Sequence record: MT446407.1
Reading direction: 5' to 3' (one strand)
From: Escherichia virus TH34
Length of the DNA: 64,000 nt
Of the stretch, positions 19,987 to 26,711 are shown one piece after another. Numbering within the stretch: position 1 is the first letter of the stretch; each line of letters opens with the position of its first letter. The position numbers and the translations under genes are program-made. The notes under the pieces are model-generated. The model saw only the letters and a list, made by a program, of their open reading frames with translations, did no database searches and had not been told where the DNA came from.

Positions 19987-20169
19987 ACAAGTAAAGTAAA
20001 GATCAATGATAACGTTGTCTATGCACAAAAAGGTTTCTCATTGGTTCCTTTAATTGGGAAGGTTATTTGGGTGTGTGGTGGTGTTGTTCAAATTAAAGCA
20101 CCAAGTGGTCGTCTTGTTACTCGTTGGCGTGATGAAGTCATCATTCTTCCGAAGGAGTACGGTCAATGA
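19984..20169 (+). CDS. small KOW/SH3-like protein
   Basis: 61 aa; paralog of the preceding ORF. Confidence 0.4.
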   Translation: MTSKVKINDNVVYAQKGFSLVPLIGKVIWVCGGVVQIKAPSGRLVTRWRDEVIILPKEYGQ

Positions 20170-20405
20170 AGATGAATTTCGAAATCGTCCCAAGGACTAA
20201 ACAGAAGACGTTAACTTTCGGTGATTTATCTAATGGAGATATCTTCAAGTTTAAAAATCCCGATGCTGACACTTTTTTCTGGATGAAGATTGCTTCGCCG
20301 TTTTCGTCGGCTATGAAGTTAAGCAACACCTCTGACATACTCAAGGTTTCTGCGAACGCTGAAGTTAAAAAGTATGAATACAAAATTCTTATTGAGGGTA
20401 AATAA
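20166..20405 (+). CDS. GDVF-family small protein, paralog 1
   Basis: 79 aa; conserved L-x-DL-x-x-GD-(V/I)F ... Y-(L/M)-(K/R) core shared by 8 ORFs. Confidence 0.5.
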   Translation: MKMNFEIVPRTKQKTLTFGDLSNGDIFKFKNPDADTFFWMKIASPFSSAMKLSNTSDILKVSANAEVKKYEYKILIEGK

Positions 20406-20635
20406 TGAAAATCAACCTCTCCCCTGAAGTTGTTACTAAAAAGCTCGATGAGTTGCGTCCGGGTGATGTGTTCCGTTTACCTGTTAACTCAGAACACCTC
20501 TACCTAAAAACTGATGTGTGTTTGAGTGGTATGCGTCGAGTGGTTGGTCTTGGTCAGGGAACACTGTTCCAGTTACAGGAAGATCACGAAGTTATTCCTG
20601 TACGTAATGTTCAAGTAACTCGTATCGGTGGTTAA
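20405..20635 (+). CDS. GDVF-family small protein, paralog 2
   Basis: 76 aa; LRPGDVFRL...HLYLKTD. Confidence 0.5.
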   Translation: MKINLSPEVVTKKLDELRPGDVFRLPVNSEHLYLKTDVCLSGMRRVVGLGQGTLFQLQEDHEVIPVRNVQVTRIGG

Positions 20636-20860
20636 ATGAAGATTGATATCGACAATACACCAGCGGTTGTAACTCTCGGTGATCTAAATCCGGGTGAAGT
20701 CTTCCAGTTTAATTACAACGAAACTCAATATTACATGCGTACTGCATGTTACGGTGAAAACAAAAGTTATTTTGTTAACCTTTATACAGGTAAACGTGAA
20801 TCTGAGTGTAAATCAACTGTAGTCAGACCTTTGCCTAACGCACGATTAACCAATAAGTAA
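20636..20860 (+). CDS. GDVF-family small protein, paralog 3
   Basis: 74 aa; LGDLNPGEVFQF...YYMRTA. Confidence 0.5.
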   Translation: MKIDIDNTPAVVTLGDLNPGEVFQFNYNETQYYMRTACYGENKSYFVNLYTGKRESECKSTVVRPLPNARLTNK

Positions 20861-20868
20861 CATCGACT

Positions 20869-21010
20869 TATAGCCCTTGTGCTTATCAGAGGGCTATGTG
20901 AGGATGTTCCTCAATTAACTATAATCTCAATGCCATATGGCTCACCGCTAGGGCGAGACTTGTCTCAAACATCCGGTGATAGACTAAAACCTGTTTAATT
21001 TTCGAATGGC
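20869..21010. repeat. noncoding repeat element copy A (hairpin plus conserved downstream sequence)
   Basis: TATAGCCCTTGTGCTTATCAGAGGGCTATGTGAG hairpin and about 100 bp with patchy identity to the copy at 26715. Confidence 0.6.
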
Positions 21011-21281
21011 ATTCCGATATGTAGGGGTATGTATCGGTTTGGGATAGAGAACAATCTAGGGGTAGAGAGTTCTCGACAGTTTGTACAAGCGGAAGCCTTA
21101 ACGTGTAGGGCTTCCCTTTATATTAACTGGCAACCCTGCCTCCACTAACAAAGAGAGAACGTTATGAAGAAGTCAACCAAGCGTATGAACCGTCCTGAAC
21201 GTATGGATGCAGTAGCAAATGGCGCTCTGAAGATTGAGTCTGCCATGCTTCGTCTGACAACTAACATCCGTAAACGTCAAG

Positions 21282-21491
21282 GTGATTGGTTCTATGGCGG
21301 CTGAGCATGATGTTGGTATTCGTGAGATTATTCGTCTTGCGATAATTGATCACCCTAACAGTCGCAATGGCCTATTGTTACAGGTTTCTAAATGTCTTAA
21401 TTGTGACAAAGATGTGGCCAAAGAATTATTCTTTGCATTCATCTATAACGCAGATGATCGCTTCTTGAATAACAAGTTGCGTAGTGCTTAA
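21282..21491 (+). CDS. hypothetical small protein
   Basis: 69-aa ORF followed by a terminator. Confidence 0.35.
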   Translation: MIGSMAAEHDVGIREIIRLAIIDHPNSRNGLLLQVSKCLNCDKDVAKELFFAFIYNADDRFLNNKLRSA

Positions 21492-21495
21492 TAAG

Positions 21496-21527
21496 AGGCT
21501 GCCCTTCGGGGTGGCCTTTGTTGTTTT
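21496..21527 (+). terminator. rho-independent terminator
   Basis: ggctgccc-ttcg-gggtggcc followed by tttgttgtttt. Confidence 0.55.
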
Positions 21528-21570
21528 AATTAAGAGGTAGCTCTTACTTAAACTAATAAGAGAGGTTGAT

Positions 21571-24575: not shown

Positions 24576-24806
24576 ATGCCGGTAACAATCTGGGAAACAA
24601 AGCGACACCTTAAAGCTATTCAGATGGAACGCAAAAACGAACTGAGAATGATTTATGAAAAGTTAACCTACTCGGTTCTCTACCATCGTCGTCTGGTTAG
24701 AATTATAAAACCTAGTGCATTCGGTACTGCTCACTGGTATAAAGTTACCAATGCGTATCGAGATGCAGTTAATGCTCTTGAAGAGTTCGTAAACTCTCAC
24801 AAATAA
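24576..24806 (+). CDS. hypothetical small protein
   Basis: 76-aa ORF with RBS aaaggtgatgaag. Confidence 0.4.
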   Translation: MPVTIWETKRHLKAIQMERKNELRMIYEKLTYSVLYHRRLVRIIKPSAFGTAHWYKVTNAYRDAVNALEEFVNSHK

Positions 24807-24816
24807 AGGTGATGAA

Positions 24817-25071
24817 ATGAAAGTTAACATGCCAGCAGGTAAAAATTCAATACCCCTCAGTGCTTTGCGACTTGGGGATTGCTTCATGTACCCTAACAGT
24901 GAAGATGGTGATTTGTACATCTTACTGTCTACCGAGTTCTCAACTCGACTCTGCATCAAGGGCGCGGATGAGCACAGACTTGTAGCCTGTCTTAACACGG
25001 GCAGAGCGACAGCACCTCGTAAAGATGTTGCTGTTATTCCTATTAAAGCTGAAGCAACTATTAAGGAATGA
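24817..25071 (+). CDS. GDVF-family small protein, paralog 6
   Basis: 84 aa; LSALRLGDCFMY...DLYILLS. Confidence 0.5.
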   Translation: MKVNMPAGKNSIPLSALRLGDCFMYPNSEDGDLYILLSTEFSTRLCIKGADEHRLVACLNTGRATAPRKDVAVIPIKAEATIKE

Positions 25072-25074
25072 GCA

Positions 25075-25341
25075 ATGACAATCCTTACTATCAATAAGAC
25101 CCATGTTGCAGACATTCCTGTGACTGTGAAGGATGTTCCTGAGGGTTCATTCTTTACCTTAAATGAAGACGATGTACAGATTGTATATCTTAAGGTAAAT
25201 AAATCTTCTAACAACGCTGAATACAACCGAGCGGTAGTTGTTAGCTCCGGATATGTCCGTCAACTGGCGCACAACCTTCGTGTACGTGTTCTCTACACAT
25301 CAGCAACTCTGGATTTAGTGGAGAAGATCAGTGAAACATAA
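25075..25341 (+). CDS. GDVF-family small protein, paralog 7 (divergent)
   Basis: 88 aa; VKDVPEGSFFTL...VYLKVN. Confidence 0.45.
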   Translation: MTILTINKTHVADIPVTVKDVPEGSFFTLNEDDVQIVYLKVNKSSNNAEYNRAVVVSSGYVRQLAHNLRVRVLYTSATLDLVEKISET

Positions 25342-25603
25342 GGATGGTTCAAAGTATGTATCACTATTGGATGCAGCCCTTCTCTGCACGTACTGGCTCC
25401 TTATTGTTATTGGGGTCGTGCTAGGGCTATGTGGTATCGTACAATTCTTTATGTACCTGCAAAGCGTGTTAGATATCACACTAGCTAACACTATAATCCT
25501 TGCAATTCTCGGTATTATTGCTTTCTGTGTGATTGTCTTCTTCGTTTGGTTATCTATGAACGACGACTCTACACACCTTCTATTGACAGGAGAAAATCAG
25601 TGA
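25331..25603 (+). CDS. small integral membrane protein (2 TM)
   Basis: 90 aa with two long hydrophobic helices. Confidence 0.45.
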   Translation: MKHKDGSKYVSLLDAALLCTYWLLIVIGVVLGLCGIVQFFMYLQSVLDITLANTIILAILGIIAFCVIVFFVWLSMNDDSTHLLLTGENQ

Positions 25604-25784
25604 GAAAACGTGCCTACTCTGAAGAAGAGATGGTTAGCCTGAAAGGCTTTGGTCAGCGACAGCCTGATGGCTCAGTTATCTGGTACATTAACGGACAGAA
25701 AAAGGCAAGTAAATAAGCCCTCTTCTCTCCTCCCTTTAGCTACTATGACGCCTCTCTTTTCGGCGCTGTTTTGGAGCTTCAAAA

Positions 25785-26198
25785 ATGTCTGGGAAATTCC
25801 CCAACGTAAGCAAGAAATTGGCTTACCTCACGTATAAAGAAAACATTGATCTTCTGGTCAAACTTTATCCGGCTTCATTCAACAAGCAATTCCCTCTTCC
25901 TTTGGAGCTTAACATCCATAAGGAAATCGCCCGCAAGACCGGTTGGTCAGCGGAGAAAACAAGCATGGTGCTCAACATCTGGACTACTCGTATGGAGTAT
26001 GTGATGATGGCATGTAGCACTGGTAAGCGCTTCAAGCTGCACTCTGTAGCTATGAAGATTCGTAGTCCTATTGACCCTGAGCCGATGGCTGGGTTCAGCA
26101 GTCGTCTGAAAGCTTTCCGTGATAAACGTCGTGTGGTGAAGTTCAAGCACGATTTCTCGTACAAGTTTGGATACGAAGCGTTCCAATTCGTTGTTTAA
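25785..26198 (+). CDS. hypothetical protein
   Basis: 137-aa ORF. Confidence 0.45.
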   Translation: MSGKFPNVSKKLAYLTYKENIDLLVKLYPASFNKQFPLPLELNIHKEIARKTGWSAEKTSMVLNIWTTRMEYVMMACSTGKRFKLHSVAMKIRSPIDPEPMAGFSSRLKAFRDKRRVVKFKHDFSYKFGYEAFQFVV

Positions 26199-26226
26199 TC
26201 TCTCTTTAATTTAAGGTAATAAAAAC

Positions 26227-26460
26227 ATGTCTAAAGTTAGCGCAATTGATGCCATCCGTCAGCCGTTCCAGTTTGAATCCAAGTCAACTCAGACCCAAAG
26301 TGAACCGCGTCAGATTCGTCTGGGTGGTACAGAGAAGTCTGTGTTTGATATTGCGAAAAACAAAAGCGTGACCATCGTCGAAGGCGGTGAGCTGGTTAAT
26401 GTTTCCCACCGTATCCGCACTGGCAAAACTGCCAAAGATCGTGCTAAGAAAGGTCTGTAA
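26227..26460 (+). CDS. hypothetical small basic protein
   Basis: 77 aa, RBS aaggtaataaaaac. Confidence 0.4.
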   Translation: MSKVSAIDAIRQPFQFESKSTQTQSEPRQIRLGGTEKSVFDIAKNKSVTIVEGGELVNVSHRIRTGKTAKDRAKKGL

Positions 26461-26711
26461 TGCAAATTGCTAATAAAACCCCTCCTGAATCAATTACCCA
26501 AGTAAAGGATATGTCACCGGGAGATGTATTTCGTGCAACGGAATATCCGGGGGAGTTCTTTATTCGAATCCCCTCAGCTTCTGTTGGTGGCATTGCTAAA
26601 CCTGTAACAGCAGTTCAGCTAAGTACAGGACATCTCTTCCGTTTAGAGATTGACATGGTTGTAATCCCTGTTCCAACAGCAATCCTTCGCTTTGACGGAG
26701 CCACAGAGTAA
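26460..26711 (+). CDS. GDVF-family small protein, paralog 8
   Basis: 83 aa; VKDMSPGDVFRA...FFIRIP. Confidence 0.5.
   Translation: MQIANKTPPESITQVKDMSPGDVFRATEYPGEFFIRIPSASVGGIAKPVTAVQLSTGHLFRLEIDMVVIPVPTAILRFDGATE

Follow-up and report, generated by a model that had tools for sequence, protein, structure and literature searches.

Several diverged small beta-barrel proteins are encoded in the early region of the virulent coliphage T4, where GoF, together with MotB.1 and Frd.2, makes up an LSm-like family whose nearest structural neighbours are FeoA and the SH3 domains of IdeR and SloR (PMC12152347). Another small phage protein, gp79 of phiEco32, is an RNA polymerase-binding, sigma-displacing factor that has a four-helix fold and binds the beta' clamp (PMC12276001). 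Here we describe eight small proteins (members 1 to 8) encoded within 64,000 nucleotides (nt) of DNA from Escherichia virus TH34 (record MT446407.1), a stretch referred to below as the window and to which all coordinates refer. Judged on their sequences, the eight open reading frames (ORFs) are real, diverged copies of one protein domain, and the T4 LSm-like family is their closest published analogue.

An earlier, sequence-only reading of the window had pointed to eight ORFs of about 75–88 amino acids as a paralogous family generated by repeated duplication and diversification. All eight are present at the starts that it gave, on the + strand, with an actual size range of 74–88 amino acids, the upper end being as proposed. 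They are grouped in three translationally coupled clusters. Member 1 (20166–20405, 79 amino acids, isoelectric point (pI) 9.4), member 2 (20405–20635, 76 amino acids) and member 3 (20636–20860, 74 amino acids), the last of which closes cluster I, are followed by member 4 (21571–21801, 76 amino acids), member 5 (22021–22272, 83 amino acids, with an N-terminal extension), member 6 (24817–25071, 84 amino acids, with a long beta3–beta4 insertion), member 7 (25075–25341, 88 amino acids) and member 8 (26460–26711, 83 amino acids, pI 5.3). Three members had been described as standing in strict tandem with overlapping start and stop codons; such an overlap, of 1 nt (TAATG), is found between members 1 and 2 only, members 2 and 3 adjoining without overlap (TAA followed directly by ATG). 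Members 6 and 7 are separated by 3 nt, the start of member 1 overlaps an upstream non-member ORF (ATGA) and that of member 8 overlaps the stop codon of another by 1 nt. A Shine–Dalgarno-like purine run lies 5–10 nt 5' of the start in all eight cases.

Pairwise identity among the eight is low (16–31% in global alignment) and some pairwise phmmer matches are weak (E >0.1); invariant positions are limited to Met1, the 'GD' Gly and the 'VF' Phe, which bears out the view that the members are otherwise divergent. Leave-one-out analysis was performed with hidden Markov models (HMMs), each built from seven members and compared with every ORF in the window that encodes 35 or more amino acids (490 in total). 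In each of the eight tests the held-out member ranked right behind the seven training sequences, with E values for members 1 to 8 of 4e-6, 2.7e-13, 9.6e-8, 2.7e-7, 1.2e-4, 1e-4, 6.9e-5 and 2.1e-9, respectively. Member 2, the most central of the eight, is thus the strongest match and member 5 the weakest, the top non-member ORF scoring E 0.85–3. The best PHROG matches of members 1 to 8 (10911, 16423, 9955, 10911, 22099, 7832, 12612 and 6570, in that order) are accompanied in every case by matches to the PHROGs of paralogues at E 1e-5 to 1e-10, and all of the PHROGs matched are annotated 'unknown function'. The sequence-only reading had made its case dependent on statistical support for the shared motif; the HMMs provide that support and, with the PHROG cross-matches, place it far beyond chance. 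The motif as first described is matched in part only by members 6 (S-A-L..GDCF..Y-I-L) and 7 (K-D-V..GSFF). No ninth copy was found in the window by either a narrow or a broad family HMM.

The domain is stand-alone, ~75 amino acids long and predicted to form a small SH3-like beta-barrel. AlphaFold2 (AF2) models of member 2 (predicted local distance difference test score, pLDDT, 81.9; SH3-like barrel) and member 5 (pLDDT 78.3; all-beta) agree on this fold, structure prediction being among the checks that had been suggested. Sequence conservation is concentrated in the core and turns (F/L-x-D-L, G-D-V-F, Y-M-K, V-x-L-x-T-G and V-x-P-V), and the N-terminus, the beta2–beta3 loop, the beta3–beta4 hairpin and the C-terminal tail vary in both sequence and length. 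At the level of the fold, the models superpose on FeoA, DtxR-C, KOW, Tudor, L2-C and SH3b domains, and the domain can be likened to a range of cellular SH3-like barrels: the C-domain of ribosomal protein L2, the C-terminal SH3 domain of DtxR/IdeR, FeoA, EF-P domain I/KOW, Tudor, the RID of CarD and Mfd, HspQ and the VapX antitoxin. Sequence models yielded no match to SH3-like domains of known function in Pfam (E<=1), NCBIfam or PDB sequences.

Like the T4 proteins, the TH34 members are several diverged small barrels encoded in the early region of a single virulent coliphage, and the structural neighbours of the two families (FeoA/IdeR-type SH3 domains) overlap; the T4 proteins are non-essential or of unknown function. 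The T4 proteins are longer, however (119–141 amino acids, with an extra C-terminal domain), whereas the TH34 members are single-domain proteins. Sequence homology to GoF and MotB.1, the two T4 proteins compared, was not detectable by HMM or hhalign: goF and motB.1 gave no match at E<=20 in a search of the first 50 kb of T4, and hhalign probabilities were 0.7–0.8%. phiEco32 gp79 resembles the TH34 members in its small size, comes from the same phage group and acts on a host machine, but it is unrelated to the family because its fold is four-helical (PMC12276001) and the AF2 models are all-beta; identity with gp79 is thereby ruled out.

Beyond TH34, a 44-sequence profile was used in a HMMER scan of 1.84 billion representatives with a cut-off of E<1e-3, yielding 863 representative clusters, most of them stand-alone proteins of 69–90 amino acids. 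The consensus of 170 singletons (M-K-I ... [VIL]-[TK]-[FL]-x-[DE]-L-x-x-G-[DE]-V-F ... Y-[ML]-[KR] ... V-x-L-x-[TS]-G ... V-x-P-V) again shows low occupancy and high variability at the N-terminus, the beta2–beta3 loop, the beta3–beta4 hairpin and the C-terminus. The TH34 proteins share its hallmarks, namely a single domain of about 70–90 amino acids with G-[DE]-[VCF]-F, [YFW]-[MLI]-[KR] and V-x-L-x-[TS]-G, members 6 and 7 deviating at some positions. A model-phage relative is gp21 of bacteriophage N4 (YP_950499, 74 amino acids), identified as a member with HMM E values of 1e-10 and 3e-17 and an hhalign probability of 98.8%; gp21 and its relatives (PHROGs 7832, 6570, 9955, 7431, 8365, 12612, 16423, 10911 and 22099) share sequence family, length, motifs and predicted barrel with the TH34 proteins, and we refer to the family as N4 gp21-like. 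N4 encodes only one copy, situated among its middle genes, whereas TH34 has eight and phiEco32 nine. A Foldseek comparison with viral models (BFVD) returned uncharacterised phage proteins only, N4 Gp21 amongst them, from phages of Escherichia, Serratia, Erwinia, Proteus, Morganella, Yersinia, Pseudomonas, Vibrio and Klebsiella, including three proteins from EP335 and two each from Myduc and tf.

The domain also occurs in fused form. At least 10 of the top 150 matches are two-domain proteins of 126–170 amino acids, and 3–6 tandem copies joined by K/E-rich linkers are found in the long proteins P0051, P0061, P0084, P0094, P0064 and P0068, the first four of which carry 5–6 domains in a single polypeptide. 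P0094 and P0051 come from the same locus in jumbo-like metagenomic phage contigs (L002 8001–10040 and L014 8001–9548), with ribosomal protein S21, MT-A70, a GT4 glycosyltransferase and a PARP/WGR protein as neighbours, and P0058 is encoded on a phage contig with NrdD and dUTPase. The N-terminal stretch of P0094 carries a vWA-like D-x-S-G-S motif and has no Pfam match. Three of the top matches, P0048, P0049 and P0142, were rejected as members since they look like repeat-driven or SH3b cross-matches; P0142 is an SH3b-repeat lysin whose weak match (E 3.5e-6) is summed over six repeats. As far as has been examined, the family appears to be restricted to phages. Neither the eight members nor the fusion proteins match Pfam at E<=1, and no match was found in NCBIfam, PADLOC (defence proteins) or PDB sequences; literature searches on phiEco32 paralogues, N4 gp21 and SH3-like early proteins brought up nothing specific, and no paper describing the family was found. 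The family is previously undescribed, though visible in databases, and is expanded in the phage group to which TH34 belongs.

That group is the Gordonclarkvirinae. A megablast search with positions 20000–27000 returned 107 phage records, all of them Escherichia or Shigella podophages of this subfamily, headed by ECBP2 (91% identity over 87% of the query), and gene order agrees with that of ECBP2, SU7, MN05 and phiEco32, so that the window is that of a phiEco32/ECBP2-like podophage. A word-indexed homologue search returned close Gordonclarkvirinae relatives only, without names or Pfam domains, and tblastn matches among 50,697 GenBank phage records were confined to the subfamily. Counted with the 44-sequence HMM, family members number eight in the window and in MN05, nine in phiEco32 (gp95, 96, 97, 98, 104, 109, 113, 114 and 115), seven each in ECBP2 and PAS59, six each in Bas88 and HC-25922 and five each in Bas87 and SU7. 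The layout is kept throughout these relatives, with a tandem array followed by one or two scattered copies, a tRNA-Arg gene and more tandem copies, and the Kuravirus copies are less than 41% identical to those of the window.

Orthologues from eight related genomes were used to estimate ratios of nonsynonymous to synonymous substitution (dN/dS) by the Nei–Gojobori method, an analysis that the sequence-only reading had advised. The ratio is 0.00–0.31 in all orthologue comparisons, at dS of 0.07–1.9, and purifying selection on the family genes is therefore clear. Evolutionary rate nevertheless differs strongly between lineages. All six of the close (Suseptimavirus-like) relatives examined carry orthologues of members 2, 5, 6, 7 and 8. 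Member 6 is the most conserved (~94–99% amino acid identity over the aligned protein, dN/dS 0.00–0.09); member 7, though encoded next to it, is divergent (62–67% identity, dN/dS 0.17–0.26). The ratio is 0.21–0.29 for member 2 and 0.15–0.19 for member 5, for which a relative with 49% identity was also found in the distant phage GAP52. Member 1 is an accessory copy, found among the eight relatives in ECBP2 and PAS59 only (dN/dS 0.12–0.16), and member 3 is patchy, being 93% identical in HC-25922, 55–58% identical in ECBP2 and Bas88, and absent from SU7, Bas87 and PAS59. For member 4, tblastn against the 50,697 GenBank phage records found no orthologue reaching 50% identity, the best partial matches (41–47%) being to syntenic Kuravirus gp109-type genes. 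The megablast alignments begin at query positions 166, 405 and 855, which are where members 1 and 2 start and member 3 ends, and because these are exactly gene boundaries, cluster I can be seen as a variable cassette array. The proposed history of duplication and diversification is thus upheld: the duplications that gave rise to the family are old, and single copies have been gained, lost or replaced among close relatives, which differ in copy number (five to nine) and content.

The family had also been placed in the early region, and both synteny with phiEco32/SU10 and the promoters agree with this. The rightward early/middle arm begins near 12.5 kb, and four near-consensus sigma-70 promoters (12523–12550, 14968–14995, 15200–15227 and 15498–15526, all +) head the rightward early block. 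These four reproduce the 'one plus three' layout given for the early promoters of phiEco32 and SU10 (PMC4281155), and the SU10 early genes are listed as coding sequences (CDS) 69–125 (PMC4281155, PMC8948821). Perfect + strand matches to the gp36-type (phage-sigma) promoter TAATGTATA occur only at 47407 and 53723, so that the family genes lie downstream of the four sigma-70 promoters and upstream of the first perfect TAATGTATA promoters. On the basis of position and synteny, then, the family (20–27 kb) lies in the early block and is probably expressed early, by analogy with phiEco32/SU10 and given the sigma-70 promoters upstream. No family member was detected in SU10 proteomics.

Two of the arrays are closed by a conserved non-coding element. 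Beginning at member 3's stop codon, copy 1 (20858–21163, +) comprises a hairpin (20868–20899), a conserved structured spacer of ~250 nt and a terminator-like hairpin (21091–21115). Copy 2 (26709–26935, +) begins with a 94%-identical hairpin directly 3' of member 8 and continues through a homologous spacer to an intrinsic terminator (26908–26925) with a T-run; the homologous spacers are ~200–250 nt in length. A near-invariant element of ~45 nt, TAACATCGACTTATAGCCCTTGTG(C/T)TTATCAGAGGGCTATGTGAGGATGTTC, contains the hairpin and has a 10 bp stem (ATAGCCCTT/AGGGCTAT) and a minimum free energy of −21 kcal/mol (z −4.2). RNAalifold adds further helices, in which compensatory changes between copies or genera are seen at three pairs, and Rfam returned no match for the element. 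Its positions are shared by the eight relatives examined, although a pattern search did not find copy 1 in HC-25922. Copy 1 is kept in phiEco32 and MN05 too, despite flanking proteins that share less than 41% identity with those of the window. Depending on the phage, one to three family genes lie upstream of copy 1. The element may represent an RNA processed from the 3' untranslated region (UTR), serve as a signal for processing or antitermination, or mark a fixed boundary for recombination.

What might such proteins do? The reading that we favour, and to which we give about an even chance, is that each paralogue is a diversified, host-directed binding module and that the paralogues together form an accessory host-takeover or counter-defence set. 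The proteins would be made early in infection as small stand-alone modules, the variable loops of each would bind a different host (or phage) macromolecule, and the bound target would be inhibited or redirected. The fold, the conserved core with variable loops, the lineage-specific purifying selection, the cassette-like gain and loss of copies and the mixed charge all point towards binding modules. The target is more likely to be a protein than a nucleic acid, since the members have no shared basic character (pI 5.3–9.4 across the eight, median 6.05 over the 170 singletons). Effectors of this kind would also fit with reports that Gordonclarkvirinae are highly resistant to bacterial defence systems (PMC11990801). 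The sequence-only reading had likewise proposed host-takeover or anti-defence functions with diversified targets; its observation is confirmed and its interpretation is plausible. Several points weigh against effectors, however. We found no experimental record of function, partner or expression for any family member, and the orthologue comparisons showed no gene-wide positive selection. Being generic, the SH3-like fold, which RNA- and DNA-binding domains (KOW, L2-C, Tudor, Sso7d-type) also adopt, cannot discriminate between readings. Conservation of the polar residues D17, D22, K36 and T55 could reflect a functional site common to the members and not structure alone, and the defence resistance may stem instead from the DNA-modification locus (PMC11990801).

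The structural neighbours and the adjoining structured RNA element also lend themselves to a different explanation, in which the members are small nucleic-acid-binding barrels (KOW/Sm/Sso7d-like) that, by analogy with T4 GoF/MotB.1/Frd.2, would act on early or host transcripts by way of mRNA stability, translation or transcription elongation. The charge distribution speaks against this, and we regard both the binding mode and the proposed roles as unlikely, if worth keeping in mind. Less likely again is a specific version of the counter-defence idea, according to which the clusters would be exchangeable cassette arrays of inhibitors, each barrel neutralising its own target among the immune or stress proteins of E. 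coli, with the hairpin and 3' UTR that close two of the arrays serving as a fixed recombination and/or RNA-processing boundary. If true, such a boundary would let phages swap one to three cassettes with expression signals intact and would help to explain the resistance of Gordonclarkvirinae to nearly all defence systems tested.

Translational coupling of the tandem genes, together with the two-domain and 5–6-domain fusions (which by Rosetta-stone logic hint that neighbouring copies cooperate), raises the question of whether the paralogues act jointly, as a hetero-oligomer or multivalent scaffold, possibly an Sm/LSm-like ring. The presence of five to nine copies in close relatives and of one in N4 is hard to square with an obligate complex of fixed stoichiometry, however, the fusion linkers are long and K/E-rich, and the N-terminal Sm helix and Sm motifs appear to be lacking; we consider joint action quite improbable. 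It is more improbable still that the genes are dispensable filler or 'moron' cassettes with no host-directed role, kept by recombination and hitch-hiking. Members 1, 3 and 4 do come and go among close relatives, and T4 does not need its small-barrel early genes in the laboratory (PMC12152347), but the low dN/dS holds in every lineage compared and five lineages are retained in all close relatives examined, that of member 5 reaching as far as GAP52. Finally, a chance resemblance between unrelated short ORFs, for which only the low identities and weak phmmer scores could be cited, is refuted by the leave-one-out HMMs and PHROG cross-matches, as well as being at odds with the concordant AF2 folds and 863 outside relatives, and has virtually no likelihood.

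The surroundings of the family genes deserve brief description. Between 11000 and 29000, sigma-70-like matches are depleted (16 versus 38.9 +/- 5.7 expected) and terminator-like hairpins enriched (28 versus 11.9 +/- 3.2 expected), most of the hairpins being on the + strand between early gene clusters (17360, 18647–18875, 21091, 21494, 24488 and 26908). With promoters few and hairpins many, early transcription is therefore either segmented or reads through many hairpins. Three of the four strong sigma-70 promoters lie within an ORF-poor region of ~2 kb (14200–16400, +) that also contains short direct repeats (15103–15131/15596–15624 and 15380–15400/15606–15626).

A second small paralogous family is encoded by three tandem ORFs (22806–22991, 23001–23165 and 23174–23383, +; 53–69 amino acids) just upstream of the tRNA-Arg gene. 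Its members are 29–42% identical, have a zinc-ribbon-like pattern (M-I-K-W-x-K-R-F-F-H-x-H-[DE]-W ... C-K-[VL]-C) and in two of three cases match phrog_8294 (unknown function). Four other ORFs (17891–18100, 19811–19987, 19984–20169 and 21785–22012, +) encode proteins of 58–75 amino acids in which visual inspection suggests a high beta content, with G-x-V ... V-x-W or KOW/Tudor-like patterns; their PHROG matches, if any, are of 'unknown function' and none of the four matches the family HMM. The early block may thus hold several unrelated small-barrel families. The tRNA-Arg(TCT) gene itself (23393–23468, +) lies between family clusters, a position kept in those relatives whose records annotate it. 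Interleaved with the family genes are ORFs (23487–23813, 24030–24296, 25331–25603 and 26953–27120, +) for a putative lipoprotein (lipobox L-T-G-C) and several small hydrophobic proteins, which may have membrane or superinfection-exclusion functions; phiEco32 gp106 is annotated 'putative phage lipoprotein'.

Taken together, the analysis unites eight 'hypothetical proteins' in a single defined domain family with a confident fold model and a model-phage anchor in N4 gp21. The family has 863 representative clusters and no counterpart in Pfam or NCBIfam, and would justify a new Pfam/DUF entry. Present in five to nine copies per genome in a common subfamily of E. coli phages noted for resistance to bacterial immunity, and with orthologues in the BASEL phages Bas86–88, the family offers a compact and tractable set of candidates for host manipulation or counter-defence, useful as such but not surprising. 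If its members do not prove to be inhibitors, they would belong to the ordinary dark matter of phage early genes; if they do, and have distinct targets, they would provide new tools for anti-defence or host shutoff.

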